Shown here piece after piece: positions 1,403-50,056 of a DNA stretch of 60,777 nucleotides; the stretch's first letter is position 1, and every line of letters starts with the position of its first letter. The notes under the pieces are model-generated. The model ran no database searches and was not told the DNA's origin. It saw only the letters and a program-made list of their open reading frames with translations. The translations under genes were made by a program, and so were the position numbers. The stretch is from a virus, in IMG/VR virus record IMGVR_UViG_3300045988_022004; one strand, 5' to 3'.

Positions 1403-1641
1403 ATACTTTCGTCTCCTTTCTAATATCTTTTGCCGAGACGTCGAATACTTTACGTACTCTCTATAAGAGATCTAGGTATGTTTTAATAACCCTGAAAGGA
1501 GTCTTCAACTGAAAGAGGGTCCTTCTATGTGCGACAAAAGAAGACCAAGATCCCTTATAGAGAGGGCGTAAAGCTGTCAATCTAAAATCCATTTTGACAG
1601 GATTTTGACCCCCGGAGAATTTTTAAGGAGACCGGCGATGA

Positions 1642-1673
1642 CGGAGGGGGTGCTATTTTGACGACCCCCTCCG
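1642..1673. repeat. GC-rich perfect 10-bp inverted repeat (CGGAGGGGGT / ACCCCCTCCG) with a 12-nt loop.
   Basis: Read directly from the sequence. It sits in the 383-bp non-coding gap 1403-1785 and is flanked by three ATTTTGAC copies. Confidence 0.8.
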
Positions 1674-1749
1674 GGTGCTAGCTGAGACACTCGAACGCTA
1701 TTTAGAGTCTTCATGTTTGTGAAAGCTCTAAAAACATTCAAATCTCAGC

Positions 1750-5672: not shown

Positions 5673-5807
5673 TGTTCTCCTTTCGTAGGGCCGGAGGTAA
5701 ACGTAATGGCAGAATTTATTTTATACAGTTGCAGAACTTTAATCAATAAAAAGAGCCCCACGAAAAGATGAGCAAAAGGAAAAGAGGCAGATTCGTCTCT
5801 CTCCCCT

Positions 5808-5832
5808 ATAATAAGCTATGTTTTTTTCGCGA
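5808..5832 (-). promoter_or_regulatory. Promoter-like cassette P1: TCGCGA-N13-TATTAT on the minus strand.
   Basis: It has the same geometry as 15 other copies. It lies directly after the helicase stop and is followed by a leader of about 135 nt before gene 5346..5672. Confidence 0.45.
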
Positions 5833-11343: not shown

Positions 11344-11522
11344 ACTTTTCCCTTTCCTGACCATTTGGGCACAAAAATGTGCTTTCAAAAACTTTTATAT
11401 ATTTTCATACTTTTCTAAAAAGTTTTTTAAACTATATAAAAAATGGGTTTTTGGCCAATAAGGGCTTAAAATACCCCTAAAAAGCCACTTTTTCACCAAT
11501 TTTTGAAATTCACTGGTCAAAT

Positions 11523-14787: not shown

Positions 14788-14866
14788 GAGATGCAAACGG
14801 GATATGAACCCGCATCTCTGGTATAGGGAAATACCAGTGCACTGCTATTGTGCTATTACGCATCTC
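14788..14866 (-). ncRNA. Promoter-proximal structured leader of about 79 nt. It can fold as a cloverleaf (tRNA-like) or, alternatively, as a terminator hairpin.
   Basis: GAGATGC (14866-14860) and a second GAGATGC (14818-14812) can each pair with GCATCTC (14794-14788). Three internal hairpins are present. One has a T-arm-like GGTTCATATCC. A U-rich tract follows. Confidence 0.4.
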
Positions 14867-14871
14867 TTCTC

Positions 14872-14896
14872 ATTATAACATGTGTTTTTTCTGCGA
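14872..14896 (-). promoter_or_regulatory. Promoter-like cassette P2: TCGCAG-N13-TATAAT, with a TGT extension.
   Basis: Consensus geometry. The predicted transcription start falls at the first base of the structured leader. Confidence 0.5.
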
Positions 14897-16092: not shown

Positions 16093-16500
16093 TTATTCTG
16101 ATTTTTTATTCTGCTCTTCTTCACGTCTCTGGCGCATGAAGTCATCAAGCTGAACAAGTATTTTTCTTTCAATGGTGTCCCCGATGCCCGGTATGCTTGT
16201 TAGCCTGTTATACTTGACCCATCCAGACAGCTCTTTAATATTTTTAGCTCCTCTTTTAACTAAAAATTTTCTAGTTCTAGGAGTAATTGACTGAAGGTAT
16301 CTAAGATCATACGGATCTTTATAGACCTCTTCGCCACGAAATAATCGTACCTTAGTAATTATCTCGTATATTCGCTGTGTAGAGACATATTCATCCATTG
16401 CTATCATACGAACACTATCGCCATTCCGCCAACGTTTAAAGATGGCTAAGTCACGTTCGGTTACGGTCCAATTTCCCATTTTTCTCTTTTTGTCGCACAT
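16093..16500 (-). CDS. Putative transcription factor: a sigma region-4-like HTH plus a helix-hairpin-helix resembling the RNAP alpha C-terminal domain.
   Basis: GDSVRMIAMDEYVSTQRIYEIITK (HTH); NIKELSGW...LTSIPGIGDTIERKIL (HhH). Confidence 0.4.
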   Translation of the reverse strand: MCDKKRKMGNWTVTERDLAIFKRWRNGDSVRMIAMDEYVSTQRIYEIITKVRLFRGEEVYKDPYDLRYLQSITPRTRKFLVKRGAKNIKELSGWVKYNRLTSIPGIGDTIERKILVQLDDFMRQRREEEQNKKSE

Positions 16501-18347: not shown

Positions 18348-19316
18348 TCATCTCGGTGATACTTCTCCGTAGATGCAACCATCACAATTGAAATCGATCA
18401 GTAATACTCTCTCATTTTCACCGGTCTCCTCGTTCGGGATCATAACCCACTTGGTAAGGAATGTTACATTGTTGTCATACTTACCGTACTCTGGGTCTTT
18501 CTGACTACGATATTTCCATCCGTGAGTCAGACCAATGTCAGTAGGCTTTAAACCGATCATACGGTATACATCATTCAGTGTAAGGATGCCTTCACATTTT
18601 AACCGGGTATCTGCTTCCTTCTCACGCTGAGCGAGCATAAATTCATTCTGCGGATTGTCATTGAACCATTCAGTAGAGTTCTCTTTTGTGAAGAGTCGTG
18701 CGTACGGTGAGCCGCCGAAGTTTCTGATAATCTCCTGCTCTTCAGTTACTTTCTTTTTCTCACCTGTCTCTGGGTCTGTCTCAGTCTTCTTGACTGTCTT
18801 CTTCTCTGAACCGTACAGCATTTCCTTGTCAACTTCTTCACCATACTTGTTAATTACATTTTGACGGTATGTCTGGTAAGCCTTAGCGATTGCTGCACAA
18901 GATGCTGCTAATGCTGCCTGACGCTGCTTCATAATGTGATGAGATCCGAGAATAAGACCAATAGATACTGCTTCAAGAATGACAGGTCCTGCATAGAGCT
19001 TAATATACTCCAGTGCTGTCTTACGCTTTAAGAGAACCATGTCATTGGTTGCGTCTTCTCTTGTGTAAGCCTGATCAAGAGATTCTGGATCTTCTTCATA
19101 CTTTGCTGCTGTCTCTACAATCTTCTGCTTTGTTGCTTCCTCATTACTCTTTACTGCTGCCACTTTAAGAGTAGCTTTCTGTGTCATGATCAGAGCTCCA
19201 ATGCCTACTCCAATACCTGCAAATAACATGATCTCCGGAGAGTTCATTTTGGTCCAGGCCTTAGTATGACCTACTACTGTTGATAAACTTGTTACTGCTG
19301 TGTCTAATGCTTTCAT
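18348..19316 (-). CDS. Two-TM membrane protein; family member 1 of 3.
   Basis: Two hydrophobic helices followed by AALAA...YxxYRxxV, shared with 22164..22994 and 23011..23838. Confidence 0.65.
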   Translation of the reverse strand: MKALDTAVTSLSTVVGHTKAWTKMNSPEIMLFAGIGVGIGALIMTQKATLKVAAVKSNEEATKQKIVETAAKYEEDPESLDQAYTREDATNDMVLLKRKTALEYIKLYAGPVILEAVSIGLILGSHHIMKQRQAALAASCAAIAKAYQTYRQNVINKYGEEVDKEMLYGSEKKTVKKTETDPETGEKKKVTEEQEIIRNFGGSPYARLFTKENSTEWFNDNPQNEFMLAQREKEADTRLKCEGILTLNDVYRMIGLKPTDIGLTHGWKYRSQKDPEYGKYDNNVTFLTKWVMIPNEETGENERVLLIDFNCDGCIYGEVSPR

Positions 19317-22099: not shown

Positions 22100-22136
22100 A
22101 ATTTTGTCCTCCTTAAAATTTTTTTGTATATCTCTC

Positions 22137-22161
22137 ATTATAGAATATGATTTTTTTGCGA
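22137..22161 (-). promoter_or_regulatory. Promoter-like cassette P3: TCGCAA-N13-TATAAT.
   Basis: Consensus geometry, immediately after the stop of 22164..22994. Confidence 0.5.
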
Positions 22162-22163
22162 GC

Positions 22164-22994
22164 CTACATTATCTCACGATAATCAAATCTTGGGTTTGCA
22201 AAATATCCAACAGTCAGGCATGGCTTCCCGTTTCGTAACGTCGAGTCGAACTGAACATCCAGATAAGTGTCAGGAGTCCATCCTACATCATCACCAACTT
22301 CCACATGGTTTGCGTCTACTTCGTCGTAGAATTCATTCAGAGATATAAACATTTCTCCAGAGAGGAATCGATCTTTGATCCTGCTAACCGCCTGCAATAC
22401 ATCATTTCTTGTTGAGTAGAATACGTTGCCGGTGAACAGATCAATACAAACTTCTTTTCCGTCAGGAGCACCTTCAAACTTAGATTCTGGGATCTCCTTT
22501 ACCTGCTCGTCTCTAGCAGCCTTGGTAGCTTTGGCATCAGTCTTCGGGGATACCTTGGCTACGTTTCTACGGTATCTGTCGTACGCATTTGCTGTAAACT
22601 CATACATTGCTGTCATGGCAGTAAGTCTAGCTGTGCTGATCTTATACGATCCAACGAATGCCGAGATACTTAATGCTCCCAAAATTACTGTAGGGACATA
22701 GCACTTCCAGCAAGACTTTACAATCTGCTTAGGTCCAAGTTCTTCAAATCTATAAGCCATATCGGATTTTGCTACAGACATTGGGAGTTCCTCGTATTCA
22801 ATCTCTCCCCTTTCATACCTGTTCGCAATCTCGTCATCCATTTTGTCGATTGCTAATGGTGTAGCTTTGACCGCACTTATTACAGTAGCAGCCAGCCCTC
22901 CAATTCCAGCGATCATAAGAAGCATAGGCGCATTCTTATCGGCAACTACTGGAATCTTGTTTGCCTCCTTGATTAAGTTGTTTAAAAAGCTCAT
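22164..22994 (-). CDS. Two-TM membrane protein; family member 2 of 3.
   Basis: See 18348..19316. Confidence 0.65.
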   Translation of the reverse strand: MSFLNNLIKEANKIPVVADKNAPMLLMIAGIGGLAATVISAVKATPLAIDKMDDEIANRYERGEIEYEELPMSVAKSDMAYRFEELGPKQIVKSCWKCYVPTVILGALSISAFVGSYKISTARLTAMTAMYEFTANAYDRYRRNVAKVSPKTDAKATKAARDEQVKEIPESKFEGAPDGKEVCIDLFTGNVFYSTRNDVLQAVSRIKDRFLSGEMFISLNEFYDEVDANHVEVGDDVGWTPDTYLDVQFDSTLRNGKPCLTVGYFANPRFDYREIM

Positions 22995-23010: not shown

Positions 23011-23838
23011 TTATATCATGCTTGACTGATACTCTAAATCTTTGAACCAGCCTTTGGCTTCTCGTTTCTCTGTTTTTGTTGCCATAAATAATCCATGCGG
23101 TAAGTCGAGATATCTTATATAATATCCTTCGCTATTTTCAAACGGTACTAACTGAATATCAATCCATTCGTCAGTCTTATCATTTTCATCCATATCAATC
23201 TTAGACCAACCAACGATGTCTCCAAAACATGTCGGATTTAAATCAAGATCATATCTAAACTGATTCAAAGTCACTGTCTGATTTGGATTCATGACTAATT
23301 TCCTATTTAGTTTTAGTATAGCAGATTCTACTGTTGCTTTATCGGCATAGAATCCTTGGTCTGTCAGGCTGTCAATGAAGAATATCAATCCAGTAGTATC
23401 TACGAATTTTGATTCCTGCTCAGATACTGTTTTCGTTATTGGTGTTCTGCTTGCCTTCCAAATATCTTCTTCTTTTTCTTTACCTACCTCGTGTACTACT
23501 TCGTCTCTATATCTTTTAAAGTTCGCCTGTAAAAGACTCATAGCACCTGCTAATGCAGCGAGCTGTTTCTTATTTAAGAAGTTTGATCCAAAGATGCACC
23601 CTATTGTAGCAGCGCCAACTACAATAGACGGAGCATAAATCGGAGCTACAACCTTTACTTCTTCAATAAACGTAAGCTCTCTATGCTTCTTTTTCTCGAC
23701 CTCATCGATTTTAAGTGTCGCCTTTATAGATGCCTTATTAGTAAGCATATTAGATACGACTACGCCTATAGCCGCACCTATAGACAAGATAGTAGGCATG
23801 TTTCTTTTAATAAAATATCCCACCTGTTCAGTGTTCAT
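23011..23838 (-). CDS. Two-TM membrane protein; family member 3 of 3.
   Basis: See 18348..19316. GGAGTCAAAATG start context. Confidence 0.65.
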   Translation of the reverse strand: MNTEQVGYFIKRNMPTILSIGAAIGVVVSNMLTNKASIKATLKIDEVEKKKHRELTFIEEVKVVAPIYAPSIVVGAATIGCIFGSNFLNKKQLAALAGAMSLLQANFKRYRDEVVHEVGKEKEEDIWKASRTPITKTVSEQESKFVDTTGLIFFIDSLTDQGFYADKATVESAILKLNRKLVMNPNQTVTLNQFRYDLDLNPTCFGDIVGWSKIDMDENDKTDEWIDIQLVPFENSEGYYIRYLDLPHGLFMATKTEKREAKGWFKDLEYQSSMI

Positions 23839-24172: not shown

Positions 24173-24207
24173 TTTAATACTCCTTTCGTGTTAAACAATA
24201 AGTTCTC

Positions 24208-24259
24208 ATTATAATACATGATTTTGTTGCGAAAGAAGAGAGGACCTGAATTAGTCCTC
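24208..24259 (-). promoter_or_regulatory. Terminator-promoter cassette P4: hairpin GAGGAC-N8-GUCCUC, U/C tract, TCGCAA-N13-TATAAT-GAGAAC.
   Basis: Hairpin at 24240-24259, TCGCAA at 24227-24232, -10 box at 24208-24213. Confidence 0.55.
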
Positions 24260-24406: not shown

Positions 24407-24419
24407 TTTATCACCTCCT

Positions 24420-24444
24420 ATTATATACTATGATTTAGTTGCGA
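24420..24444 (-). promoter_or_regulatory. Promoter-like cassette P5: TCGCAA-N13-TATAAT.
   Basis: Overlaps the last codons of 24428..24667. Confidence 0.45.
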
Positions 24445-25796: not shown

Positions 25797-26225
25797 TTAG
25801 ATCTTTGTCTTTGGGAAGATCCCAGGAAATGCCTTACTGAGTATTGCGCCTCCGTTACCTTCGAAAACCATAACCCCGATGCTCAAACCAGTCCAAGCTG
25901 CCAGCGTCAAGCCAGACTTGATCATTTCTAACTTTGAGTTAGTTTTGGATAGTAGCAGTTCACGCTCTCTAATGTCAAGCTCCCGTTCTTTGTGGCTCAT
26001 CTCTTTTTCAGATAAGCGTTCTTTACTAAGGATCTCTTTCGTTTTGAGATCGTACTCCTGTTTGAGTTTATCCTCTTCTAACTTCAATTTGTAGAAATCG
26101 ACCAAGTTTCCGGCAATAGCGTTTCGCTCGTCTCCGATTTTCTCATCAAAGAGTTTATTGTCCTCCTCGATAATTGTCTGTTCCAACACTTCTCTTAAGT
26201 CTGTAGTTCCTTCTTCTCTTGCCAT
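25797..26225 (-). CDS. Coiled-coil protein with a C-terminal TM helix.
   Basis: Track ORF. Confidence 0.6.
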   Translation of the reverse strand: MAREEGTTDLREVLEQTIIEEDNKLFDEKIGDERNAIAGNLVDFYKLKLEEDKLKQEYDLKTKEILSKERLSEKEMSHKERELDIRERELLLSKTNSKLEMIKSGLTLAAWTGLSIGVMVFEGNGGAILSKAFPGIFPKTKI

Positions 26226-26258
26226 TTTAAACTCCTTTCTAATTTACAACAAGTTCTC

Positions 26259-26283
26259 ATTATAAGCTTTGTTTTATTTGCGT
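26259..26283 (-). promoter_or_regulatory. Promoter-like cassette P6: ACGCAA-N13-TATAAT-GAGAAC.
   Basis: The -10 box overlaps the stop codon of 26260..26508. Confidence 0.45.
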
Positions 26284-27608: not shown

Positions 27609-27627
27609 ACATTCCTCCTTTCATCTC

Positions 27628-27652
27628 ATTATAGCACATGAGATTTATGCGA
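27628..27652 (-). promoter_or_regulatory. Promoter-like cassette P7: TCGCAT-N13-TATAAT, with a TGC extension.
   Basis: Overlaps the last codons of 27645..27875. Confidence 0.45.
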
Positions 27653-28094: not shown

Positions 28095-28129
28095 TATAAT
28101 TACCTCCTTATGATAATAGTTTATTTCTC

Positions 28130-28186
28130 ATTATAATATATGAGATTTTTGCGAGAAAAAGAAAGAGCCAATGTTTCCATTAGCCC
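28130..28186 (-). promoter_or_regulatory. Terminator-promoter cassette P9: GAAA-loop hairpin (family copy 5), U tract, TCGCAA-N13-TATAAT-GAGAAA.
   Basis: Hairpin at 28165-28186, TCGCAA at 28149-28154, -10 box at 28130-28135. Confidence 0.55.
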
Positions 28187-28304: not shown

Positions 28305-28325
28305 TTTAGCTCCTCCTTTCTTCCT

Positions 28326-28377
28326 ATTATAGGAGAAGAATTTATTGCGAAAGAAGAGAGGACCTGAATTAGTCCTC
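28326..28377 (-). promoter_or_regulatory. Terminator-promoter cassette P10.
   Basis: Hairpin GAGGAC/GUCCUC at 28358-28377, TCGCAA at 28345-28350, TATAAT at 28326-28331. Confidence 0.55.
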
Positions 28378-28608: not shown

Positions 28609-28622
28609 ACTAATCACCTCCT

Positions 28623-28673
28623 ATAAAGAGATATGAATTTCTTGCGAAAAGGAAACGGGCTTTGAATCGCCCG
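28623..28673 (-). promoter_or_regulatory. Terminator-promoter cassette P11, with a weak -10 box.
   Basis: Hairpin CGGGC/GCCCG at 28656-28673, TCGCAA at 28642-28647, CTTTAT at 28623-28628. Confidence 0.35.
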
Positions 28674-28903: not shown

Positions 28904-28930
28904 ATTAGTTACCTCCTAAATATAATCTTC

Positions 28931-28981
28931 ATTATAACCCATGAATATATCGCGAAAAGAAAGAGACCTTGATTAAGCCTC
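28931..28981 (-). promoter_or_regulatory. Terminator-promoter cassette P12.
   Basis: Hairpin at 28963-28981, TCGCGA at 28950-28955, TATAAT at 28931-28936. Confidence 0.55.
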
Positions 28982-29152: not shown

Positions 29153-29168
29153 ATAAATCACTCCTTTC

Positions 29169-29221
29169 ATTATACGAATAGAAAATATTGCGAAAAGAAG
29201 AGAGGACCTGAATTAGTCCTC
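29169..29221 (-). promoter_or_regulatory. Terminator-promoter cassette P13.
   Basis: Hairpin at 29202-29221, TCGCAA at 29188-29193, TATAAT at 29169-29174. Confidence 0.5.
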
Positions 29222-29398: not shown

Positions 29399-29436
29399 AT
29401 CTGTGTACCTCCATAATTTTGTTTAGTATAGTTCTC

Positions 29437-29489
29437 ATTATACTAAAAGAATTAAATGCGAGGCAAAAGAAAGAGGCCTTGATAGCCTC
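29437..29489 (-). promoter_or_regulatory. Terminator-promoter cassette P14.
   Basis: Hairpin at 29473-29489, TCGCAT at 29456-29461, TATAAT at 29437-29442. Confidence 0.5.
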
Positions 29490-29652: not shown

Positions 29653-29688
29653 AATAGTTACCTCCTTAAATATAATGGTTTATCTCTC

Positions 29689-29740
29689 GTTATATGACGT
29701 GAGATTTTTGCGAAAAGAAAGAGACCTTGAATTAGGCCTC
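29689..29740 (-). promoter_or_regulatory. Terminator-promoter cassette P15.
   Basis: Hairpin at 29721-29740, TCGCAA at 29708-29713, TATAAC at 29689-29694. Confidence 0.5.
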
Positions 29741-29926
29741 AATCTCCTTTAAATAATTCTTATGTAATTTTTTCATACGATATATGAATTTTACCATATT
29801 CAACACAGATCCAGATACTCTGTAAAGACCATCGTCGTCAACGCTTTTATACTCAATGCTATGACTCTTACAATAAGTCTTAAACTGTCCATCCAATTCA
29901 TCTGCAATTTCAATATATCCTTTCAT
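29732..29926 (-). CDS. 64-aa hypothetical protein ending in EIEA.
   Basis: Track ORF; ATG follows AAGGAGGAAAATGAT. Confidence 0.6.
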   Translation of the reverse strand: MKGYIEIADELDGQFKTYCKSHSIEYKSVDDDGLYRVSGSVLNMVKFIYRMKKLHKNYLKEIEA

Positions 29927-29961
29927 ATCATTTTCCTCCTTATAAATAAGTATTATTTCTC

Positions 29962-30016
29962 ATTATAAGATATGGAATTTTTGCGAGGTAAAAGAAGAGG
30001 CCCTGAATCAGGCCTC
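29962..30016 (-). promoter_or_regulatory. Terminator-promoter cassette P16.
   Basis: Hairpin GAGGCC/GGCCUC at 29997-30016, TCGCAA at 29981-29986, TATAAT at 29962-29967. Confidence 0.55.
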
Positions 30017-30277
30017 TACTCTTTGATCATCAATAATTTTGAAGTATTCAATTTTAATGTCCGGATAGCATTCTGTTATATACTTTCTTATTTTGAGATA
30101 TGTTCCATAGTGCATCTTGCAATTCAATACCCATTCTCCATTGATGAATAATACATCTGCCGATTGTATCTTACCTTCAGTGTATCCGCACCAATCAAGT
30201 ATTCCTGATATTCGTCCCAAGATATAGTCGTTAACATCATTCTCTTTGATTATAATTTGATATAACATTTTATCCAT
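30008..30277 (-). CDS. 89-aa hypothetical protein ending in VEA.
   Basis: Track ORF; ATG follows AAGGAGGATTTTAT. Confidence 0.6.
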   Translation of the reverse strand: MDKMLYQIIIKENDVNDYILGRISGILDWCGYTEGKIQSADVLFINGEWVLNCKMHYGTYLKIRKYITECYPDIKIEYFKIIDDQRVEA

Positions 30278-30313
30278 TATAAAATCCTCCTTAAATATAA
30301 TTATTTAGTTCTC

Positions 30314-30338
30314 ATTATACTCGGTGAAAATTTAGCGA
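30314..30338 (-). promoter_or_regulatory. Promoter-like cassette P8: TCGCTA-N13-TATAAT-GAGAAC. It is the first promoter after the late/lysis operon.
   Basis: Consensus geometry, 83 nt downstream of the holin stop. Confidence 0.5.
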
Positions 30339-33144: not shown

Positions 33145-33483
33145 TTATGTCAAAGACTCGCTGGTAGCCTCTGATTCGGATGTAACAATTGGATCGTTCT
33201 TGTAGGCTCTGATGGTGACATCATTAGATAACCCATCATGGATCTCAATAACATTGTCCAGTTTGAACCCGTCGAATGTAGTGACATTTTCATTGTCGTC
33301 TGTGATCTCCATATGAGAGATATTGTCGGCATTGCGGGCCGTAGAAGCGATTCTGTCAAACACTGCTGGGGATTCATATGTTGAAGTAATGTTCAGATAA
33401 GTTCTACCTGATTGATTCTGAGCATACTCTCTTGTAAATTTGCGAATATCAACTGTCGTTCCGTTTCCGAATTTAAGTTTCAT
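33145..33483 (-). CDS. Hypothetical protein.
   Basis: Track ORF; its start overlaps the radical-SAM gene's stop by 11 nt. Confidence 0.6.
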   Translation of the reverse strand: MKLKFGNGTTVDIRKFTREYAQNQSGRTYLNITSTYESPAVFDRIASTARNADNISHMEITDDNENVTTFDGFKLDNVIEIHDGLSNDVTIRAYKNDPIVTSESEATSESLT

Positions 33484-34810
33484 TTTGATCCTCCTTACTT
33501 AATTCTTTAAGCATATTAAGTTCTTCCTCTCCAATAATAGGAATGGCCCATTCATCTGGGCAGTATATTTTGAATCTCTGTTTCCAATGTTTCTTACGAT
33601 ACCACTTATTCCAGAAGTATGCATTTGCAAGAGATCGGGTCTTGTGCATATCGCAAATATAAGTACAACGAGAATCTGGAGTTCCATTTTCTTGGTAGTT
33701 GTACGCAGAGCACCAACTGCAACCCTCGGCTATAGGGCAATAGAAGCATTCGTCACTAGACTCTGTTCTTCTGTTGATCTTATTCAGACATTCAACGCAT
33801 TGCTTGTCGCATGTTCTCTGTGCAATCCCGAAATTTACGTGGCCAATTCTAAGCGGTTCTCGAGATGTTCCTAGACTGCTCTCCATATATCTTATACATG
33901 GATAAAGCCATCCGTCTGGGTCCATCGCCAGCATGAAGCCAGTTCCTCCACACCAGTTTTCGACATCCGTTTCTTCCTTTGGTTTGAAGAAGTCATTCTC
34001 GAATAATGCCATGAAATGGTCGTCGGCTAAGTCATTTTCAAGCCAATAATCGGCTAACATTTTGAGCTGCTCATAATAGATTTTTGCATGCTCCAATGTC
34101 CATCCCTTTTCATAAACGACGTTCGCATTGATATCTTTGTATCCAAGTTCTACCATATGTTTAATCGCCGAGAATAGATGCTGCACATTACCTGGTGCTA
34201 TGGTGATCTTAGAGCCCATATAGTATCCTCTTGATATCCAATCACGAGCTCCAGCTACTGCCACATCATAAGACCCAGTACCATCTGGAAAGACTCTACA
34301 AGCATCATGCAGAGCCTTATTTCCATCGATGGTAATTGAGAAAGAGAGATTATGCCGCCATTTGTTCAGGAACTTCTGAACCTTAGGCTCAAAATATAAT
34401 ACACCATTTGAGCAAATCGAAATACAAAATTTTGTTGCCCATGGGTGCATCAACTCGATAGCCTTATCATAGAAATACGTGCAAATCTGATCAATAAGAT
34501 CCACGCATAAGAAAGGCTCTCCGCCAATAAACTCAATGATAATGCCAGGTGATGTAGAGGCGTCGATGTAGTTACCGAGGCGTTCATCTCCAGTAAGAAG
34601 CATATCAATGAGTTTCTTTGCATCTTCGAATTTCATTTTTCTCTTACCTTTGTTTATCTGATAGCAGTAAGTACAGCATAAATTGCACTCGTCTGTTACT
34701 TGAAAGGTCACGGTACGAGATAAAGTTCTTCTGTCAGATGCATTATTTGTAATAATTGTCTCAGGATACAACCTTCCGATCATATCCTGAAACTGTTCGA
34801 ACTTCTTCAT
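33473..34810 (-). CDS. Radical SAM enzyme with a C-terminal SPASM-type auxiliary cluster domain (peptide-modifying / anSME-like class).
   Basis: CNLCCTYC (CxxxCxxC, nt 34664-34687), FIGGEPFL, WCGGTGFMLAMDPDGWLYPC, and CFYCPIAEGCSWC...C. Confidence 0.8.
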   Translation of the reverse strand: MKKFEQFQDMIGRLYPETIITNNASDRRTLSRTVTFQVTDECNLCCTYCYQINKGKRKMKFEDAKKLIDMLLTGDERLGNYIDASTSPGIIIEFIGGEPFLCVDLIDQICTYFYDKAIELMHPWATKFCISICSNGVLYFEPKVQKFLNKWRHNLSFSITIDGNKALHDACRVFPDGTGSYDVAVAGARDWISRGYYMGSKITIAPGNVQHLFSAIKHMVELGYKDINANVVYEKGWTLEHAKIYYEQLKMLADYWLENDLADDHFMALFENDFFKPKEETDVENWCGGTGFMLAMDPDGWLYPCIRYMESSLGTSREPLRIGHVNFGIAQRTCDKQCVECLNKINRRTESSDECFYCPIAEGCSWCSAYNYQENGTPDSRCTYICDMHKTRSLANAYFWNKWYRKKHWKQRFKIYCPDEWAIPIIGEEELNMLKELSKEDQNET

Positions 34811-36416: not shown

Positions 36417-38801
36417 TTATCCCCATATCGCTGCTAATGGTACCCAGGCAGAACCATTGTAAAACCTAGCTACACCTGACGTATCAATCCATAGAAGCTT
36501 TGTATTAGATGGGGCTGAAGCGCCGTAAGAAGTTCCACCAGACGATAGCTCGGTTACAGTTCCATCTTCAGCAACATGCTTCATAGCATTTCCATTACCA
36601 GAGTCAATCCATAAAGTGCTCCTTTTGGCGTTTGGCTTTGAATCTGATTTAACAACGTCAGAACCATATATATCTAAAGCTCTAGTTGGAGTCCATTTAC
36701 TTCCGGTCCAATATTGTATGAGACTTCCACTAGATGGGTCAATCCATAAATCTCCAACTTTAGGATTAGTAGGAGCGTTTACCCCATAGCTAACGCCTCC
36801 AGACTCTGCTGATTTCTTGATTGACTCTAACAGATATTTACCATTAGGAGCATCTGCGTGGAATGACTGAACATTTCCTGGAGAGATTATATGAGTAACC
36901 GAATCGAATGATTTTAGATCGAAATTAGGAAACTTTGTATCTTCGGTGATCTTCATAGTAGAGGATTGGTATGGGGCGAATACTGTTGTGTCGGAATCGT
37001 CAAGAGTTACCATGATGTCCGAAATTGTAGCATTAACATTTGAAGCTGGGTTATTATGTTGAATCGCAATAATGACATGATGTTCGCTCCAATCATAAGC
37101 ATCATGTTTTAAAATATCAGAAAAGTTTTTAACATATACATTTGTATTTGTAAAAACTTGAATGTACGCTTCAACATTAGTTACACTTTTTTTAGCGCTT
37201 ATTTTTAGGTCATGTCCCGCTTTTAGCATTCTCAAAAGAAATGCATTACATTCATCCGTACTAATAATGAAAGCTAAAAATGATTTTTCAGTTGTTCCTT
37301 CGATTTTAATCATTCCTTCTTTTAAAGCTGTAAATGTGAGACCATTATTATTCGCAGTTTTCTGAGCATACGGATAAGAAAGAATATTCTTCCCGTATGT
37401 CTTAATATCATATCCAGAATATGGGACGAAATCGTCTATTGTAGCTTCTAGATCAGTTGTAACCATTGGCTTAAATATAAGATTTGTCACTGTTGTTCCC
37501 TTATTAATATATAACCGATAATTTAAATAAGGATAAGCATCATTTATAATTACCCCATTTCCAATATCAGATGCTACAGCTTTCAATTCTGAATTTAATT
37601 CGGAACTATTATAATAACAAACGTCAATTCGGTAAGTGTCTTGGCTTCCATTTATAGGGCAACCTAGCATCTTACATCCCCCAACAGTATTTTCAAATGG
37701 GACCGATTGCGAGCTATTACCTTGTAAATAAAACACATAGTTTTCACGTGCAGTGCCATCCAGTTTCAGCGTACCATCATTGATTTTAGTCATTTTTATC
37801 CCATAACCACTATGCGCTGCGAATGGTGGTTTTAATAAATTCCTCATGGCATTACCTAACATTAACGGAGCTTCGACAGTACCTGTTAGATCTGTTTTCG
37901 TTGACTCGATAAGAGACACTTTCTCTTTGCCTAGCTTTTCTGTTTCCAGAGTAAGTTTAGCACCAAGGTCGCCTTCGAGTTTGTTTTTCATATTCTCAAA
38001 CCACTTATCGAACTCGGCCTGAGATGATTTTTCCCACTGCTGGAATGTTGACCAGTTAGCATCGTAAGCGGCTTTAATCGTAGCAAACCACTGGTCATAG
38101 CCGTTCTTAATACTATCATACCATTCCTGATAATCCGATTTTGAAGTTGCTTCCCAATCAGCAATCTCTTTCTTAGCGGCAGCAAGCCAAGCCTGATAAT
38201 CCTGTTTCTCGCCATTCATCCAGGTATTGAAATTTGCGGTATTCTCCTCTACAAACTTATTCAAGATATCTTTCCACTGAGGTATAAGCTGTTCGATGCT
38301 AATTACCTCAAGAATACCTGTAACAAACGGGCAAGCGCTCGTCCCTACACAGTTCTCAATATCTGCCTGCCTAATGGACGTAACCTCTTTGCCAACCTTA
38401 ACGTAAGCCAACGGATACTGATGAACTTCCTTAGTATTTGTCAGTGCTGGCTTGGTAGGTGTAGAAGATGGCGTTCCTTTAATTAGTTTAATGCTGTTTG
38501 CTCTTACGGCCTCAACAGAGTTTATCTCCAAAACAATTGCGTCAATTCGGTCCATAAGAATCTCTGATGGTGGAATTGTCACTGGGTAAAGCGCATCGTT
38601 GTAACTCCAAGTATGATTGAACCATGCTCGGCCAGTTCCAACTGTTACGTTCATCTGGTTGCTTTGCTTAACGACCATACAGTCACCAATAGATGCAAAA
38701 ATTCCATCTCGAATTAAGCCATCAAATAATCTTGAAATGTCGGTAGCATCATATAATCTATCATGATCTACGGAATTAAAAAATCCAGATGCAAAACTCA
38801 T
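36417..38801 (-). CDS. Tail fibre / receptor-binding protein.
   Basis: 794 aa directly after Tal. The N-terminus FFNSVDHDRLYDATDISRLFDGLIRDGIF is typical of Firmicutes phage fibre proteins. The C-terminus has a threefold ...LWID...W.P repeat. Confidence 0.65.
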   Translation of the reverse strand: MSFASGFFNSVDHDRLYDATDISRLFDGLIRDGIFASIGDCMVVKQSNQMNVTVGTGRAWFNHTWSYNDALYPVTIPPSEILMDRIDAIVLEINSVEAVRANSIKLIKGTPSSTPTKPALTNTKEVHQYPLAYVKVGKEVTSIRQADIENCVGTSACPFVTGILEVISIEQLIPQWKDILNKFVEENTANFNTWMNGEKQDYQAWLAAAKKEIADWEATSKSDYQEWYDSIKNGYDQWFATIKAAYDANWSTFQQWEKSSQAEFDKWFENMKNKLEGDLGAKLTLETEKLGKEKVSLIESTKTDLTGTVEAPLMLGNAMRNLLKPPFAAHSGYGIKMTKINDGTLKLDGTARENYVFYLQGNSSQSVPFENTVGGCKMLGCPINGSQDTYRIDVCYYNSSELNSELKAVASDIGNGVIINDAYPYLNYRLYINKGTTVTNLIFKPMVTTDLEATIDDFVPYSGYDIKTYGKNILSYPYAQKTANNNGLTFTALKEGMIKIEGTTEKSFLAFIISTDECNAFLLRMLKAGHDLKISAKKSVTNVEAYIQVFTNTNVYVKNFSDILKHDAYDWSEHHVIIAIQHNNPASNVNATISDIMVTLDDSDTTVFAPYQSSTMKITEDTKFPNFDLKSFDSVTHIISPGNVQSFHADAPNGKYLLESIKKSAESGGVSYGVNAPTNPKVGDLWIDPSSGSLIQYWTGSKWTPTRALDIYGSDVVKSDSKPNAKRSTLWIDSGNGNAMKHVAEDGTVTELSSGGTSYGASAPSNTKLLWIDTSGVARFYNGSAWVPLAAIWG

Positions 38802-39981: not shown

Positions 39982-40890
39982 TTATACTCCTTCATAGATT
40001 GTATCATTTTCAATCTTGAACTGAATACTCATTGCGCCTTCTGTAGCATTGTAAATGAAGATGTTATCTCCTTTTGACAGCTGAAACCAACTAGATCCTT
40101 TGCCTAGACAGTTTAGAATGTTTGTTGTCAGTCCAGCTCTCAATAATGTAACTGACTTTTCTCCTCGCTTAGTGTTAATGATAATATCATCTCCAGCACC
40201 ATATGCTTGTCCAGTTAAGGTCTGTATAAAGTCAGTATTTATCCTCATAACTTCACGAGTTCTAGCATTATAGATTACGATATCTTTTACCGTATCTAAT
40301 GCATGAATCGTTATTATTATGCCAACCGAAGCATCTCCTTTGTACGTTACTATATTCTCGTACATATGCACAATATCGCCGAAGTTTATGAGCTTTTCAG
40401 TTAACGAGTTGTTTTCAAATGGAAATTCAAATTTAGGATTGACGCCACTAAATAATGTAAGCGTCTTTCCATTAGTTGCATAAAAGTATGGATCTGGACA
40501 AATTACGGAAATCTGAGTTGCTTCGTGTTCCTGGAATATTGCAGGTTCATTTGACTCGACGTAACCGAAAGCGTCAAGAGATCTCTGATCCGTTACAAAT
40601 GTCAACGTGACGTATCTCTTGATAGGGAAATACTTATATGTAGTATGTCTAATAGTTTCGATGTCCGTTCCGAATCTAAAGTCCAGATCCATAACAATGT
40701 TTCTAGTTTCAAGCTTAGCACTATTGTATAATGCTCCGTCGCCGGTCGCTATCTCACTAGTATTGATCGTGGCCTTTACAGGCCCTAATCCATCGATGTT
40801 TGTTATAGCTAGACCCGAAACCTCAGGCCTAGCTAATTCCATTTCTAGGGATTCCCCTAAATAATTAGTAACAATTACTTTCTTTATCAT
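39982..40890 (-). CDS. Distal tail protein (Dit).
   Basis: Directly after the tape measure gene. Contains VTNYLGESLEMELARPEVSGLAITNIDGLGPVKATIN. Confidence 0.75.
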   Translation of the reverse strand: MIKKVIVTNYLGESLEMELARPEVSGLAITNIDGLGPVKATINTSEIATGDGALYNSAKLETRNIVMDLDFRFGTDIETIRHTTYKYFPIKRYVTLTFVTDQRSLDAFGYVESNEPAIFQEHEATQISVICPDPYFYATNGKTLTLFSGVNPKFEFPFENNSLTEKLINFGDIVHMYENIVTYKGDASVGIIITIHALDTVKDIVIYNARTREVMRINTDFIQTLTGQAYGAGDDIIINTKRGEKSVTLLRAGLTTNILNCLGKGSSWFQLSKGDNIFIYNATEGAMSIQFKIENDTIYEGV

Positions 40891-43800
40891 TTAAGAGCCC
40901 CCTTTAACTGACTAAACTGATTCTTTGTCTGTCGATATATCTCTGTATTAGATAATGCAACAGGGGAATTGTTTGTCTGATTGAATGTGTAGTTATTAGT
41001 TACATTGGTACTAGATCCTTTTAGAGCGCGACCAGTTTTACCCCTTCCGCCGTTCTGCAATGCCGCTAAGGCTTTGCTAAGACCGCTACCTTTGCCAAAC
41101 ACACTTCCGGCTATTCCACTAGCTATAGAAGCTGCCAAACCAGCGCTAGTTCCAGCTGCAGAAGATCCTGTTGCTGTTGCCACTGTACCGGATACTATAC
41201 TTGAAAGATTTGACGTATTTACATTAGCAGATAACGTAGGCATTCTTATCTTCGATAATACAGCGTTTACGGCATCTACTAAAGCTTGAGCAGCACTTAC
41301 AGCTGAAGGTATTGCACCTTTTATTCCGTTAGCGAATGAATTACCGAGTGAAGTTCCTTTTGATCCGGCTTTTCCACTGCCTTTTCCAAATTCAGACAAC
41401 GCTTTATTGACTACAGCTTTACAAGAGGCTTCTACAGTTGACAATACTGATGAAGATGAGAGTCCGATAGCAAAGCGCGTACCCATAGATTCTCCAGCAG
41501 ATTTAAAAGCTTTCTTGAAGTTTGTCTCTACGTAATTCGTGAAAGTAGAGCAAGCGTTCTTAGCAGATTTCTTTGCTGACTTTGCAACGCTGTCTGCAGT
41601 AGAGTCAATTCCAGCTTTAAATTGTCCTCCAGCTTTCTTGCCAGAAGACTTAAATGACGTATTTGTGTTAAGTGCTTCGCCAAATGACTTAGCAACTGCA
41701 TTAACTGTCTTTGTCGCTGCAGACCCTTTTAGATTTCTAGATGATCCTTTCTTAGAAGAGGTGGCTTTACCGGTAGCGGCATCAATCATTCCTTGATACA
41801 TAGAATTAACAGCTCCTAAACCTGCTTCTTTGTATGAGTCTGATACTTCTTTAGAAACTTCTTCGTTCATAGACAGTGTGTCTTTGTAATACTGATTTAT
41901 CTGTTTCTTTTCTTCAGGCGTCATTTGAAAATACGCGTCAACAATATCTGCGCCATCTAATCCTTTGTTGATTAACTCTTGAAGTAATCTAGGATCTAGA
42001 TCTTTCGATAGCACTACAATTTCGTCTCGCCATTTCTTAACAGATTCCATATTATCTTTTGCCTGCTGTAATATCTGATCTTTAGTCATTTGCATCTTCT
42101 CTTTGAATACTGCATTTGTTCGTTCAATCTGATCAGCCGTAGCAAGTCTGAATCCTTCGATATATGGTATTGCTTGTGTTCCTAGACTTTTAAGATAGTC
42201 AAGGAGCCCATCTGCGAAATTCATCTTTCGTAGTTCCTCGATACCTTCGATAACTCTCTTTTCAGCATTAACCTGAGACCACATACGGTCTATGATGGTA
42301 TCATTGCCAAGATCATTAACGACTTCTTCATATCTGGTAAAGTAATCCGTAGAACTTGAAATATCAAAGTTTGCGAATGATGTAAAACTGTCAAGGCTGC
42401 TCTTTACAGATTCTGCCATAGACTTAGCAGTATCTTCGATTTTCTTCTTCGCATCATCCCAATCATTATTAATTTTCTTGAGATTCTTCTCCATTTCTTT
42501 GGCTGCTTCTGAAACAGCATTAGGGATTTCTTTTACGTCCTTCTTAACCTCTTTCGCAGTTTTCTTTACATTCTTCTTAGCCTTCTTCTTAGCTGCCTCT
42601 TTTTCCTTCTTTAAAGCAAACGACTTAATAATATCATTAGCTCCAGACTTTTGAAGTTTAAGATTCTTAACGTATACATTGTTGATTTCTTTACGCTCTT
42701 CGTCTGAAAACGTTAGCATCTCTAATACTTTACTAAGATTTCCAGGTCCTTCATCAACCAATTCCTGAACAAGGCGAATATCCCAACCTTGGTTGAGCAT
42801 CTTCTTTATGGAATTCTTCCATTTAACAGCATCTTGATAGGTTTTCTTATAAGAAGCAATAATGTCTTCTTTGCTTTGTTTACTGGCTTCTGCATAAGCT
42901 GTATTCGCTCTATCGATTTCTTCTTTCGAAGCATTAGCGAATAGCTTAATGTACGCATAACCAGACTCACCCATACCTTTAAGAGTGTCGATAAGTCCCT
43001 TGCTAAGTCCCTTCTTTGCCGCCTGCGCAAGATTATCTTTCATTTCCTGATAACCTTCAACCTGACTTTCCATGTTCTTAAGAACAGTACTCATTTCGTC
43101 GTCCATAGAATCAGAGAACTCTGAGAATATATTTCTAGAGTTATCGAATGCAATATTCGTAAACTTAGTATATTCTTTTATTGAATTAATGATGTTGTTT
43201 CTATATTCTTTGAACGTTGAGTTAATGTTAGATTGTATGCTTTTCTGATCTTCTTTCAGCTGTTTTACAGCATTTTTGATTGCTGTGTTATTTTCCTTAA
43301 TGGCTGAATTAAGATTCTTTTTATTAAGCTTCTTACCTGATGCGCTAAGGCCCTTCTTCAAACGATCCTGTGTTTTAAGAAGCTTCTTCAAAGCTGCTTC
43401 GTGCTGTTTAACGGACTTTGTATCTTCTTTATACTGATCTGATTCCTTATACAGGGCAATAGCAAAATTCTTGATAGTTTTTTCGGCAGTTTTAGTAGCT
43501 TTACTAAGTGTCTTAAGCTTAGGTGTTGTCTTAAGCAGCTCTTTTCCTAAACTCTTAGAAATTTTAGTAATCGTCTCATACGGAGTTTTATTGAATGAGC
43601 TTACAGCCTTATCGAAAGTCTTTCCAAACTGATAAGCGACCTTAATGATTTTGGTCATCTTTATCTTTGCTTTCTTACTGTTCTTTTTAGACTTACTTGC
43701 GATCTTCTTAGAAGTTGCATCGTATGCGCTAGTTACGCCAGCTCCAGTTTTGTTAGCATTTTTGATAATATCTTTTGTCGTTTTATCCATTTGATCAGAG

Positions 43801-46800
43801 AATGTACTGTTACCGGAATTAAGAATACCATTTACAGTGTTCATGATCTTGTCGACATCAGAATTTCCAACTGATTTATTAATCGATTTCTTTATCCCCT
43901 TAACGTATCCGCTAACTGCTTTTTCTGCTTTCTTAGCGCCATCCTTTATACCTTTTCCTGCGCCTAGCAAAGCCCCTCTTCCAGCGTCGATACCTGCAAG
44001 TTCAATGTCTCCAGCTGTTGATTTAACACCTTTAACAAAACCTTCTCCAGCATAAACACCAACTTTATTGGTTTTCTTGGAAGGGGAATGCTCGTCAAGA
44101 GATTTCTTGCTCTTCATGCCCTTAAGTAATTGATTTCCTAAGGAAACGCCAGTAGAGTATACATCCGAACTCTTGTTCTTCGCCCCGCTCATAAATCCTA
44201 TAGCCGCGTTAGCTCCAGCTGTACTAAAATCTTTAGAATTAGATCTCATGCCGCTAGCAAGATTCTTAGCTAATGACGAACCTGCATCTTTGAATTTTGA
44301 ATTGTAATCCTTGAATGTGCTATTAGCGGTACTAAGAGCGCTATTTACCACTGAATTAAATCCATCGGTAGTATCTGTATCCGATTTAAATGCATCAGTG
44401 ACGTATTTCAAGAACTTCTTAGCTACGCTTGATGACGGAGACTTCATATCTTCGCTGTTATTTTTCATTCCAGTGGAAATCCACCCAACAACCTTAGAGC
44501 CAACCTTTTCAAAGTCCCCCGATTTTGATTCAAATCCATTCTGTACGGATTTTAGAGAAGTCTTACCCAAAGCCTTAAATGCTTTGTTCATATCCTTGAC
44601 TTTCTTGTCCAGTCCACCCTTAACACCGTTCAGAGAATTGATGAAATCGGACAATTGCTTAGCGATAGTTCCTGCGTTAGATGTATCAGCTCCTTTTATT
44701 GTAGTTGAAAAGCTGACAAAACTCTCACCAAATGATACAAGGTTCTTTCCGAACTTCTTTAAGCTCTCCTTGTTTCCACCAAAGAGTATGCTTTTAGCAG
44801 ATGTCGCTTCTGGAAGGTCATCGTTCAACTTCGCAACAGATGTAGCAGCAGCCGATGTAGCTGTTATAGTTGAGGTATCGATTCCGGATACTGTTTTAGA
44901 GTATTTAGCAAATGATTTACCAAATGAGACCATACTCTTACCGAAAGTCCCTAAGTCCTGAGAACCTCCGACAAACCATTCTTTCATGCCATCCAAACTC
45001 GGTATTGTTCCAGCTAATTTTGTAATTGTCATTGCTGCTGATGACGTTGCCTTTATCGATTCAGTATCAACTTTAGATACAGTGTCAGAGTATTTAGCAA
45101 ATGATTTACCAAATGAGACCATACTCTTACCGAAAGTTCCCAAATCTTCAGAGCCACCAACAAACCATTCTTTCATGCCGTCCAAACTAGGAATGGAGTT
45201 GGCAAATTCTGTTATTGTCATTGCGGCCGCAGATGTTGCTTTTACGGTTTCTGTATTAACGCCGGCCACTAGACTAGAATAAGTAGCAAATGCTGCTCCA
45301 AACGGTATAAGAGATAAACCGAATAAAGTTAAACTTTTAGATCCTGTTAATAGCTGTTTTAATCCACCAGCTTCAGGTATAGCATTTGCTAAATCAGTCA
45401 ATGTTTGTGCCGCAGAAGATGTTCCTTTGATTACCCCAGGATTTATGTTAGCAACTTCCGTAGCATACATTGCAAATGCTGCTCCAAATGGTATAAGAGA
45501 TAATCCAAAATCAGCGAGATCCTTTGTCCCGGCTAATAGCTGCGCTAATCCTCCAGATCTTGGTATGGCTTTTGCCAACTCGACTAGTGTTTTGGCCGCT
45601 ACAGCAGTGCCCTTAACTGTTTCTGGATTGACATTTGCTACTTGATCGCCATATGCTTTCATACCAGCGCCAAGATACAGTAACTGATAAGCAAATTTCT
45701 TAATTGGATCTTGGCCAAGGTTAATAAATGTTGAGATAGCATTCACAATCTCAGCTCCAGCTATTTTGACAATGCATCCTGCTAGTACAGACATAGACGA
45801 TCCTATCTCTGGTTTGACTTTACCCATCGTAGCCAAGAATGGCTGCAGTTTCTTTGCAAAGTCCGATAAGTTAGTAGCTATTTGCGGTAGTCCATCTGTG
45901 ATTCCCTGGCCAACACCGGATATAATTCCGCCGACTAACTTTCCTAAGCCTTCGCCTAGAAGTTCCATTATCTGAACTCCACCATTCATGAAATCCTGGA
46001 ATCCAGGTATCTTATTAAGACCTCCTAGTACGGCTATAATTGCTGCGAGTCCAGCAACAAATATAGAGAAACTCTCTAATGCAGATACGGCTCCAGGAAA
46101 TGGAATGGCTTGCAATATTAGCATAGATGCCGATACAGATAATAGAACCATACTTAATCCGGCTGACGCTGCTAACGATCGCTTCCAATCTAATTGAGCT
46201 AACAGCGCAATGACCCCAGTGATTTCCAAAAGAATTGCGCCAGCTAAAAGAACACTAGGCTGTACTTTTTCGACGCCAGAGAATCCTTTTAAACATAATG
46301 TAAATACACTTAAAAGCAATGATATTGCTGCTGATCCTGCTATAACTCCAGTTGGATCTAATTGAGCTAACAGCGCTATAACTCCAGCTATCTCTCCAAC
46401 AACCAAGGCAGCCACTATTACTGACTTCTTAGCGTCGATTGACACATCACCGGCTTTTATCATGGCAGACATACATAATATTATAGAATCTACAGCTGCG
46501 GTCGCTCCTGCCATTTTCGATTGATCTAGACCAGATAATACGGCAATAGCTGCAGTCAATATCAATATAGATCCAGCAACCGTTACCATCATCACACCGG
46601 CTCTAGCGGCATATTGACCAGCTTTAGCTGAAGCTTTTATTAGAGTACCAATAGGAATCATTAAAGCTATCAGATCGGCTATACATTTTGCAGTCGTCTT
46701 AAGGTCGTACCTTTGAAGCTTTTCGAATGCTTTTAATAAAACATGCAGACTAACTGTAAAACTAAGGAGCAGAACACCTGCTTTTGCGGCATTTGGTCCA

Positions 46801-49682: not shown

Positions 49683-50056
49683 TATCCAGTGACCTCCTTC
49701 CAAGCATCTTTAGCTAGCCTATCAAATACCGGTTTTAAAGCCGGGTTAATATAGTCAACCCCCTGAACATATCCACCATTTCTAGTTCCATGCCCATATT
49801 GTAGAATAATAGCTATATTCACATGGTTCACTACATTAGAATTTTTAAACACTAAACTTATAGATCCGTTATCGCGCACTATTTCATAATACCACGATGC
49901 AGCTGTTACTCCTGTTGATACCGGAGTTGCAGCCTTGAGGGCGGCTACGCCTTCACGTCCGTACTTATTTAATATACCGACGTTAACGCCTTCCAAAAGC
50001 TTTTCGAAATAATTATCGAGCTTTTTAAAATTGCCCTCAAGTTTGCATCTGATCAT
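49682..50056 (-). CDS. HK97 gp10-like tail-completion / neck protein.
   Basis: ATPVSTGVTAASW...ILQYGHGTRNGGYVQG.DYINPAL pattern. Confidence 0.5.
   Translation of the reverse strand: MIRCKLEGNFKKLDNYFEKLLEGVNVGILNKYGREGVAALKAATPVSTGVTAASWYYEIVRDNGSISLVFKNSNVVNHVNIAIILQYGHGTRNGGYVQGVDYINPALKPVFDRLAKDAWKEVTG

Follow-up and report, generated by a model that had tools for sequence, protein, structure and literature searches.

Single-chain two-barrel RNA polymerases are seen as models of the enzyme from which all cellular RNA polymerases descend and, to our knowledge, it is largely unknown how they find promoters without a sigma factor. Among the single-chain relatives in bacterial phages, only YonO of the Bacillus prophage SPbeta has been characterised; it transcribes late genes, using a single promoter that lies just downstream of the YonO gene and whose sequence is undefined (PMC5467207). 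In the Thermus phage P23-45, promoters were assigned to two-barrel polymerases via the co-occurrence of motif and polymerase, and start sites were then mapped (PMC10770324). The present work concerns the IMG/VR record IMGVR_UViG_3300045988_022004, a stretch of 60,777 nucleotides (nt) referred to as the window in its entirety, from a gut phage whose polymerase falls into a separate, helix-turn-helix (HTH)-bearing group common to Lactococcus phage 1706 and actinophages (10.1101/842583). The window carries sixteen copies of a promoter-like element, one of which (29962..29986) reads 5'-TCGCAA-N13-TATAAT-3' on the minus strand. We consider it rather probable that these elements are promoters for the single-chain two-barrel RNA polymerase encoded by the phage itself, with transcription starting at the G of the GAGA tetramer that follows the second hexamer.

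A composite motif ahead of the non-structural genes

All genes of the 60.8-kb window lie on the minus strand, and the promoter motif is read on this strand as well. A preliminary description of the sequence had listed sixteen TCGCAA-N13-TATAAT sites with an invariable 13-nt spacing. Our analysis confirmed both points, with 15 strong copies and one weak copy, all in coding orientation (Table 1). When at most one mismatch per hexamer was allowed, 15 matches occurred at a spacer of 13 on the minus strand, as compared to 0-7 for the other spacers between 9 and 20 on either strand; with up to two mismatches, 22 matches were counted, the expectation from a shuffle test being 9.4 +/- 2.8. A weight matrix derived from the 15 copies scored these at 28.9-40.4, the best scores in 20 shuffles being 0.8-15.4, and added the weaker sixteenth copy (TCGCAA-N13-CTTTAT-AGGA; copy 7 in Table 1), whose score of 15.8 is borderline relative to the shuffles. 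A match at 33421 (TCGCAA-N13-TATGCT) lies inside a gene and below the score threshold and was set aside as a chance hit.

The variants of the upstream hexamer (TCGCGA, TCGCAT, TCGCAG, TCGCTA and ACGCAA) are as reported previously, and so is the scarcity of a TGn extension before the second hexamer (two of 16 copies, at 14872 and 27628). The downstream GAGA likewise recurs, each of its positions being kept in 12-13 of the 15 copies, and the second hexamer is a perfect TATAAT in 13 of 16 cases. Conservation extends into the spacer: not only are C, G and C at -30, -29 and -28 invariant, but also C at -19, with a strong preference for A at -18 and for T at -15. The full signal comprises 29 bases, and the architecture common to the family is TCGC-N8-CA-N5-TnTAAT-GAGA. 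By contrast, a sigma-A-type -35/-10 geometry, whose absence had been claimed before, was indeed not found: there is no TTGACA-like box 16-18 bp upstream, no conserved base upstream of TCGC in the copies of the window, where the -35 positions fall into T-rich terminator tails or unrelated sequence, and no enrichment of canonical -35/-10 pairs in the window (55, 60 and 53 found vs 62.5, 56.6 and 53.3 expected).

All copies map to the non-structural arm (5804-30338) and none to the structural arm. A strong ribosome-binding site and a start codon lie within 13-38 nt after 14 of the 16 copies, and a hairpin-plus-T-run terminator immediately precedes nine of them, the other seven having none.

Conservation in related phages

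Protein searches revealed kinship with Arthrobacter, Gordonia, Streptomyces and Lactococcus phages. The corresponding phage group has hundreds of sequenced members, with Arthrobacter, Gordonia, Streptomyces, Lactococcus, Faecalibacterium and uncultured gut bacteria as hosts. It was described as being shared between Actinobacteria and Firmicutes phages, with the HTH-bearing polymerase-like protein as a putative signature gene and without mention of promoters (10.1101/842583). Our own literature searches, on the text of the motif, YonO-like promoters, promoters of Arthrobacter cluster AM and the polymerase of phage 1706, returned no description of these promoters either.

The motif itself recurs throughout this kinship. 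Arthrobacter phage Correa has at least seven intergenic TCGCGT-N13-TATAAT-GAGA copies with CA at -19/-18, Streptomyces phage Rima (59% GC) five copies of TCGCAA-N13-TATAAT-GAGA, and metagenomic genomes (four high-GC, two mid-GC) 4-13 copies each, without exception in coding orientation. In Lactococcus phage P078, ten copies of a contiguous variant keep CAT-N4-TATAAT-GAGA, with the TCGC half replaced, and a relative from the human gut has the hexamers TATTAT or TTTAAT in the same frame. An exact scan of viral contigs with the composite motif identified at least 102 stretches, mostly with several copies on one strand. Among the matches listed, a polymerase homolog is encoded in 37 of the 39 motif-bearing contigs of ≥40 kb and in 24 of the 25 that are ≥90% complete; the close relatives available for this comparison did not include a polymerase-less one as a negative control.

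These data bear on whether the repeats are promoters in the first place, rather than terminator tails, repressor operators, or recombination or packaging signals. Nine copies do directly follow a terminator, and small-gene cassettes could have copied the sequence passively. However, the motif is kept in the seven copies without an upstream terminator, which rules out TCGCAA as the mere tail of one; it resides exclusively on the coding strand, at short distance from start codons; and some copies directly drive tRNA(-like) genes (see below). Besides, it is retained across phages with <50% protein identity, and orthologous copies in close relatives differ solely at non-conserved spacer positions. 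A non-promoter role therefore appears barely credible to us.

The hexamer and the start of transcription

The preliminary description took TATAAT for a true -10 box, and on this point it has to be corrected. Sigma-70 region 2 flips the A at position 2 and the T at position 6 of the -10 element into pockets of the protein, and these are its least replaceable bases. To obtain an unbiased view of the hexamer, 112 family promoters were anchored on TCGC-N8-CA-N5-[hexamer]-GA[GA]A only, and copies matching the fetch pattern were dropped. In this set, positions 1-6 are conserved as T (94%), A (64%), T (96%), A (78%), A (71%) and T (92%), meaning that position 2 is the least conserved family-wide. TCTAAT, TGTAAT, TTTAAT and TATAAT can occur side by side within one genome, in copies that are intact in all other respects; a first genome, for instance, has five TCTAAT, one TGTAAT and three TATAAT, and another locus six TGTAAT copies. 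In the window, TATAAC and CTTTAT occur in otherwise intact copies.

A second line of evidence concerns the distance to what follows. With sigma-70 or sigma-A, transcription starts 6-8 nt downstream of the -10 hexamer. In four relatives (L063, L069, L070 and L071), tRNA or tRNA-like genes called by ARAGORN, with odd anticodon loops in the tRNA-like ones ('tRNA-???'), start exactly 4 nt past the hexamer, and the structured RNA behind copy 15 of the window starts ∼5 nt past it. Ribosome-binding sites begin 0-5 nt past the hexamer in 8 of 212 family promoters, and AGGAGG directly follows it in copy 12 as well as in the terminator-insulated copy 7. A start 6-8 nt downstream would truncate these genes and sites, whereas a start at the G of GAGA would not; as such cases are few and the argument is indirect, we take this as supporting evidence only. 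Given the variable position 2 and the genes starting 0-5 nt past the hexamer, the latter probably does not serve as a sigma -10 element in the first place.

As to the RNA behind copy 15, it reaches 35.8 bits with the Rfam tRNA model (gathering score 29) and adopts a cloverleaf-like fold (z = -5.8), and ARAGORN called no tRNA in the window. With its abnormal anticodon loop and its rejection by ARAGORN, we did not adopt the label of a functional tRNA; it may be a conserved non-canonical tRNA or a decoy.

The same observations speak to the proposal that the sites are -35-less promoters used by the host sigma-A holoenzyme alone, which would recognise a perfect -10 box together with a purine-rich GAGA discriminator (via sigma region 1.2), while TCGC and CA would be operators of a later regulator or functionless. 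A GGGA-type discriminator is known to support promoters without a -35 box, TATAAT is perfect in most copies of the window and followed by GAGA, and the sites precede early genes, which are normally independent of phage protein. Yet TCGC, CA, GAGA and their exact spacing are common to phages of Actinobacteria and Firmicutes and thus not explained by sigma-A, which accounts for the shared TATAAT only. Moreover, the TGn extension is confined to two copies, the essential -10 positions are broken in two window copies (TATAAC, CTTTAT) and in 36% of the unbiased family copies, and genes start too close to the hexamer (0-5 nt). We consequently attach very little weight to this proposal.

The two-barrel polymerase as candidate reader

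No T7-like RNA polymerase is encoded in the window, whose only polymerase-like gene is that of the two-barrel enzyme. The catalytic motif GADFDGD (the metal-binding DxDGD loop; residues 502-508) is invariant in 27 homologs. Since a sequence search of the protein against solved structures gave no match at E ≤ 1, we resorted to a fold search. An AlphaFold model from 27 homologs (pLDDT 78) matched QDE-1 (E 1e-7) and the non-virion polymerases of Thermus phages (gp64/gp62) with a Foldseek probability of 1.0, further fold matches being plant RDR2, the crAss-like virion polymerase and bacterial beta-prime. Judged by this motif and model, the 899-aa protein is a genuine two-barrel polymerase. The model further contains helical HTH-like modules at residues 28-134 and 823-898, the HTH modules of the protein being placed at about 45-125 (N-terminus) and about 823-898 (C-terminus), and matches to sigma-region-4-like HTHs were obtained only inside the polymerase, at its C-terminus and, more weakly, near its N-terminus. 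An attempt to tie one of these modules to one promoter element was uninformative, for the C-terminal HTH of P078, a phage without TCGC, resembles that of TCGC-type phages.

The suggestion in the preliminary description that the motif implies a recognition mode other than that of sigma-A at -35/-10 is supported by the lack of a -35 box and by the conservation of the non-sigma positions (TCGC, CA, GAGA) in Actinobacteria and Firmicutes phages with the polymerase, and among the three options it had named, the phage's own two-barrel polymerase with its HTHs is the one we favour, owing to the co-occurrence of motif and polymerase (37 of 39 contigs), the GADFDGD motif and fold, and the confinement of sigma-region-4-like HTHs to this protein. 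On the other hand, the Mor-like HTH protein 16093..16500, also put forward as a reader, is not conserved in the family and hence unlikely to recognise a family-wide motif.

The main competitor is a host core RNA polymerase redirected by a phage factor. At T4 middle promoters, a MotA box at -30 is combined with a sigma-70 -10 box, and sigma is appropriated by MotA/AsiA. By analogy, the hexamer might here be read by sigma-A or a divergent gp55-like sigma, with an adaptor on TCGC/CA replacing the -35 contact and the phage polymerase acting late only, like YonO. The position of TCGC, ∼13 bp upstream of the hexamer, is that of a MotA box; the predominance of TATAAT, the classical intrinsic terminators flanking the promoters, the precedent of YonO (late genes, promoter beside its own gene) and six family-core proteins of no known function would all fit. 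Against this stand our homology searches. In six-frame searches of five complete family genomes, including that of the window, sigma region 2 (PF04542; with positive control genomes) gave no match at E ≤ 1, though a highly divergent gp55-like sigma would escape this search, and neither did MotA (PF09158, MotCF) or AsiA (PF09010), a result whose reach ends at non-homologous analogues of the two. In addition, position 2 of the hexamer can be any base (A, T, G or C) in intact promoters of the family, something that a sigma-70-type reading forbids, tRNA-like genes start 4-5 nt past the hexamer, and the Mor-like protein lacks family-wide conservation. The bootstrap problem would also persist, as early genes would still need a phage protein. 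Altogether, we deem a phage factor acting on the host enzyme unlikely, albeit less so than sigma-A alone.

The family-core non-structural genes encode three DUF6353 paralogs, phrog_4079, phrog_4678, a single-strand-binding or annealing protein, a primase-polymerase, a helicase, an exonuclease, the polymerase and phrog_4303, and among these, the polymerase is the only recognisable DNA-binding transcription protein. The DUF6353 paralogs (23011-23838, 22164-22994 and 18348-19316, all on the minus strand; 275, 276 and 322 aa) belong to the few non-structural genes that are conserved throughout the ten genomes of the family that we compared.

The disordered N-terminus of the polymerase deserves a separate remark. 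It contains a 25-residue peptide, (H)YG-PR-SGRY-(W/Y)GSG-PYQ, which is conserved family-wide and in this clade also heads two small proteins flanking the large terminase gene, so that the window has three copies (4770-4841, 58490-58570 and ∼136-210, all on the minus strand). The last of these sits in an open reading frame (ORF) that wraps round the ends of the window, and the 185-aa ORF 58080-58637, one of the two small ones, aligns with positions 1-143 of the family profile of the polymerase. The shared peptide may serve in partner binding or virion targeting.

Proposed mechanism and its weak points

If the polymerase is the reader, it would bind a tripartite signal of ∼30 bp on one face of the duplex, composed of TCGC, CA 11 bp downstream and the A/T-rich TnTAAT, with the duplex contacts probably provided by the fused HTH modules. 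The hexamer would then melt and transcription start at or beside the G of GAGA, which would place the hexamer at ∼-6 to -1 instead of -12 to -7. Each promoter would give rise to a short early transcript that ends at a hairpin-plus-T-run terminator. The variant promoter (copy 16) would drive the operon that includes the polymerase gene itself and, after circularisation, its transcription may run across the probable cos site (see below) into the structural genes. The first polymerase molecules could derive from weak use of the TATAAT copies by the host enzyme, or from enzyme delivered with the virion.

Several points weigh against this reading. We infer every recognition step from sequence comparison, and the P078 comparison tied no specific HTH module to a specific promoter element. 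The polymerase gene occupies the far end of the arm and is itself preceded by a promoter of this class, which creates a bootstrap problem, and it lies just upstream of the structural genes, so that by analogy with YonO it could encode a late-gene enzyme. Hairpin-plus-T-run terminators of the classical type, such as host polymerase obeys, flank the promoters, and 13 of the 16 hexamers in the window are ideal sigma-A -10 boxes that host polymerase may use. Only a few ribosome-binding sites adjoin the hexamer, and read-through transcripts could serve some of these. Finally, the six core proteins without assigned function (the three DUF6353 proteins, phrog_4079, phrog_4678 and phrog_4303) could hide a divergent sigma or adaptor.

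A bolder version of the proposal would have a self-sufficient polymerase whose HTH modules do the work of sigma, reading TCGC, CA and TnTAAT and starting directly after the hexamer, and which, carried in the virion (possibly via its N-terminal HYG-PR-SGRY-WGSG), transcribes the whole non-structural arm from the first minute without host polymerase, using one portable promoter code in phages of Actinobacteria and Firmicutes. We regard this full version as possible but doubtful.

Individual copies and the variant class

The copies differ in their surroundings (Table 1). The terminator hairpins at 29221-29202, 28377-28358 and 24259-24240 (minus strand) are identical (GAGGACTAATTCAGGTCCTC plus T-run), and the small genes near them have similar C-terminal ends, which suggests that terminator-promoter-gene minicassettes have spread by duplication.

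Copy 16 stands for a distinct sub-class. In every genome examined, the promoter of this operon has a degenerate TCGC and a purine-rich stretch of the AGGAGGGAGAG type (GGGAGAG-type in relatives) after the hexamer. Similar variants are present in Correa and in three metagenomic relatives, and equivalents of copy 16 lie at ∼37260 in Correa (L013) and at 34473, 4087 and 22098 in the relatives G011, G019 and G022, respectively. The sub-class may represent a differently timed promoter or a late promoter.

Table 1. Copies of the composite motif, the proposed reader and the RNA behind copy 15, with positions in the window.
Feature	Position	Strand	Sequence and surroundings	Matrix score
Copy 1	30310..30338	-	TCGCTA-N13-TATAAT-GAGA; upstream of 89-aa gene 30008-30277; first of the non-structural arm	32.2
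Copy 2	29958..29986	-	TCGCAA-N13-TATAAT-GAGA; after terminator 30017-29996; ahead of 64-aa gene 29732-29926	39.2
Copy 3	29685..29713	-	Hexamer TATAAC, lacking the last T, which sigma-70 needs; after terminator 29740-29721	35.5
Copy 4	29433..29461	-	TCGCAT variant; after terminator 29489-29473	31.5
Copy 5	29165..29193	-	AAAGGAG ribosome-binding site 2 nt and start codon 16 nt past hexamer	29.1
Copy 6	28927..28955	-	TCGCGA variant; after terminator 28981-28963	30.8
Copy 7 (weak sixteenth)	28619..28647	-	TCGCAA-N13-CTTTAT; AGGAGG abuts hexamer; terminator 28674-28655 just upstream	15.8
Copy 8	28322..28350	-	AGGA after hexamer; terminator 28377-28358 upstream	33.8
Copy 9	28126..28154	-	Best consensus match; after terminator 28186-28165	40.4
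Copy 10	27624..27652	-	TCGCAT; overlaps stop codon of upstream gene; no terminator upstream	37.4
Copy 11	26255..26283	-	ACGCAA variant; no terminator upstream; ahead of 142-aa gene 25797-26225	32.5
Copy 12	24416..24444	-	Inside 3' end of upstream gene; AGGAGG directly after TATAAT, start codon 13 nt after	30.9
Copy 13	24204..24232	-	After terminator 24259-24240	39.7
Copy 14	22133..22161	-	Heads replication/core gene block	39.8
Copy 15	14868..14896	-	TCGCAG; structured tRNA-like RNA 5 nt past hexamer	35.8
Copy 16	5804..5832	-	TCGCGA-N13-TATTAT-AGGGGAGAG; variant class ahead of endonuclease/exonuclease/RNA polymerase operon	28.9
Single-chain two-barrel RNA polymerase, 899 aa	2142..4841	-	Proposed promoter reader; phrog_4291, E=0	
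tRNA-like RNA	14793..14866	-	Oversized anticodon loop; directly behind copy 15	

Genome context

The window is essentially a complete phage genome; an IMG/VR record that measures 60,953 bp and has direct terminal repeats encodes an identical polymerase. The structural part (terminase, portal, capsid and tail genes; 60.4 to ∼33 kb) is followed by very small genes (30.4 to 22 kb) and replication genes, and the non-structural arm closes with an endonuclease, an exonuclease and the polymerase. Downstream of the latter and of a 112-aa gene (1786-2124), a GC-rich palindromic non-coding element at ∼1600-1700 (minus strand) consists of a G-run and a matching C-run, followed by CATCGCCGG and CCGGGGG. 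It is conserved in position in three distant members of the family (G010, G011 and G022) and is probably the cos site, because the equivalent position is the genome end in Arthrobacter phage Correa. Neither the structural arm nor the region after the probable cos site yielded a shared motif that could mark a separate late promoter, be it in the window or in three relatives; a relaxed scan returned the known copies only, plus one chance-like match at 52543.

With 2938 residues, the tape measure protein (40887-49703, minus strand) is very long for a 61-kb siphovirus. TMP_3 was the sole domain detected in it, and we accordingly rejected the idea of a virion polymerase fused to the tape measure, as in P23-45. 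A radical-SAM-domain protein of 445 aa (phrog_1802, E 2e-64) is encoded at 33473-34810 (minus strand), between tail genes and early region. The primase-polymerase gene is preceded by a non-coding, A/T-rich gap of 134 nt (11389-11522, minus strand) with GTGGC and TGGCCAA words resembling the repeated GTGGCCA words in a non-coding region of Correa (L013, ∼37000-37350); a replication origin or a protein-binding array is possible.

Comparison with known systems

Should the favoured reading hold, an uncharacterised enzyme family would gain, in the form of a 29-bp consensus with testable positions, a directly testable promoter and with it a simple in vitro question. The consensus would also account for the arrangement of early genes in minicassettes (terminator, promoter, ribosome-binding site, gene), and could possibly provide a compact, host-orthogonal transcription system for both high-GC and low-GC Gram-positive bacteria. 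For annotators, our findings come with a warning, namely that a perfect TATAAT is no proof of a sigma-A promoter.

Among the described systems, T4 middle promoters resemble the present elements in lacking a -35 box and in having an upstream element ∼12-13 bp from a TATAAT-like hexamer. They differ in that the family studied here has no MotA or AsiA homolog, tolerates variation at position 2 and lets genes begin 0-5 nt past the hexamer. The promoters of T7, T3 and SP6 are likewise multi-copy, near-identical within a genome, on one strand and ahead of phage genes, and they need no sigma factor, as would be the case here under the favoured reading. Besides, an A/T-rich block directly precedes a purine-rich start in T7 (TATA-GGGAGA) and SP6 (TATA-GAAGA), as it does in TATAAT-GAGA. 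This likeness is one of function and not of family membership: the two-barrel enzyme is unrelated to the T7 family, the signal spans ∼30 bp with partly free spacers in place of 23 contiguous bases, and the start site is predicted.

YonO, too, is a phage-encoded single-chain two-barrel DNA-dependent RNA polymerase whose gene lies just upstream of structural genes, yet for YonO one late promoter and no multi-copy motif has been described, unlike the recurrent motif reported here. The closest characterised case is that of P23-45 with its non-virion (gp64) and virion (gp96) enzymes (PMC10770324). In both instances, a phage two-barrel polymerase—with gp64/gp62 among the best structural matches of ours—is accompanied by a conserved, phage-specific motif that lies ahead of early genes and is present only with the polymerase. 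In contrast to P23-45, there is a single polymerase here, with HTH modules fused at both ends, and while start sites and chromatin immunoprecipitation were measured in P23-45, the present description derives from sequences and a structure model. In summary, promoters specific to a phage polymerase are of a known kind, and what is new is that such promoters are proposed for an enzyme family for which the searched literature describes none.

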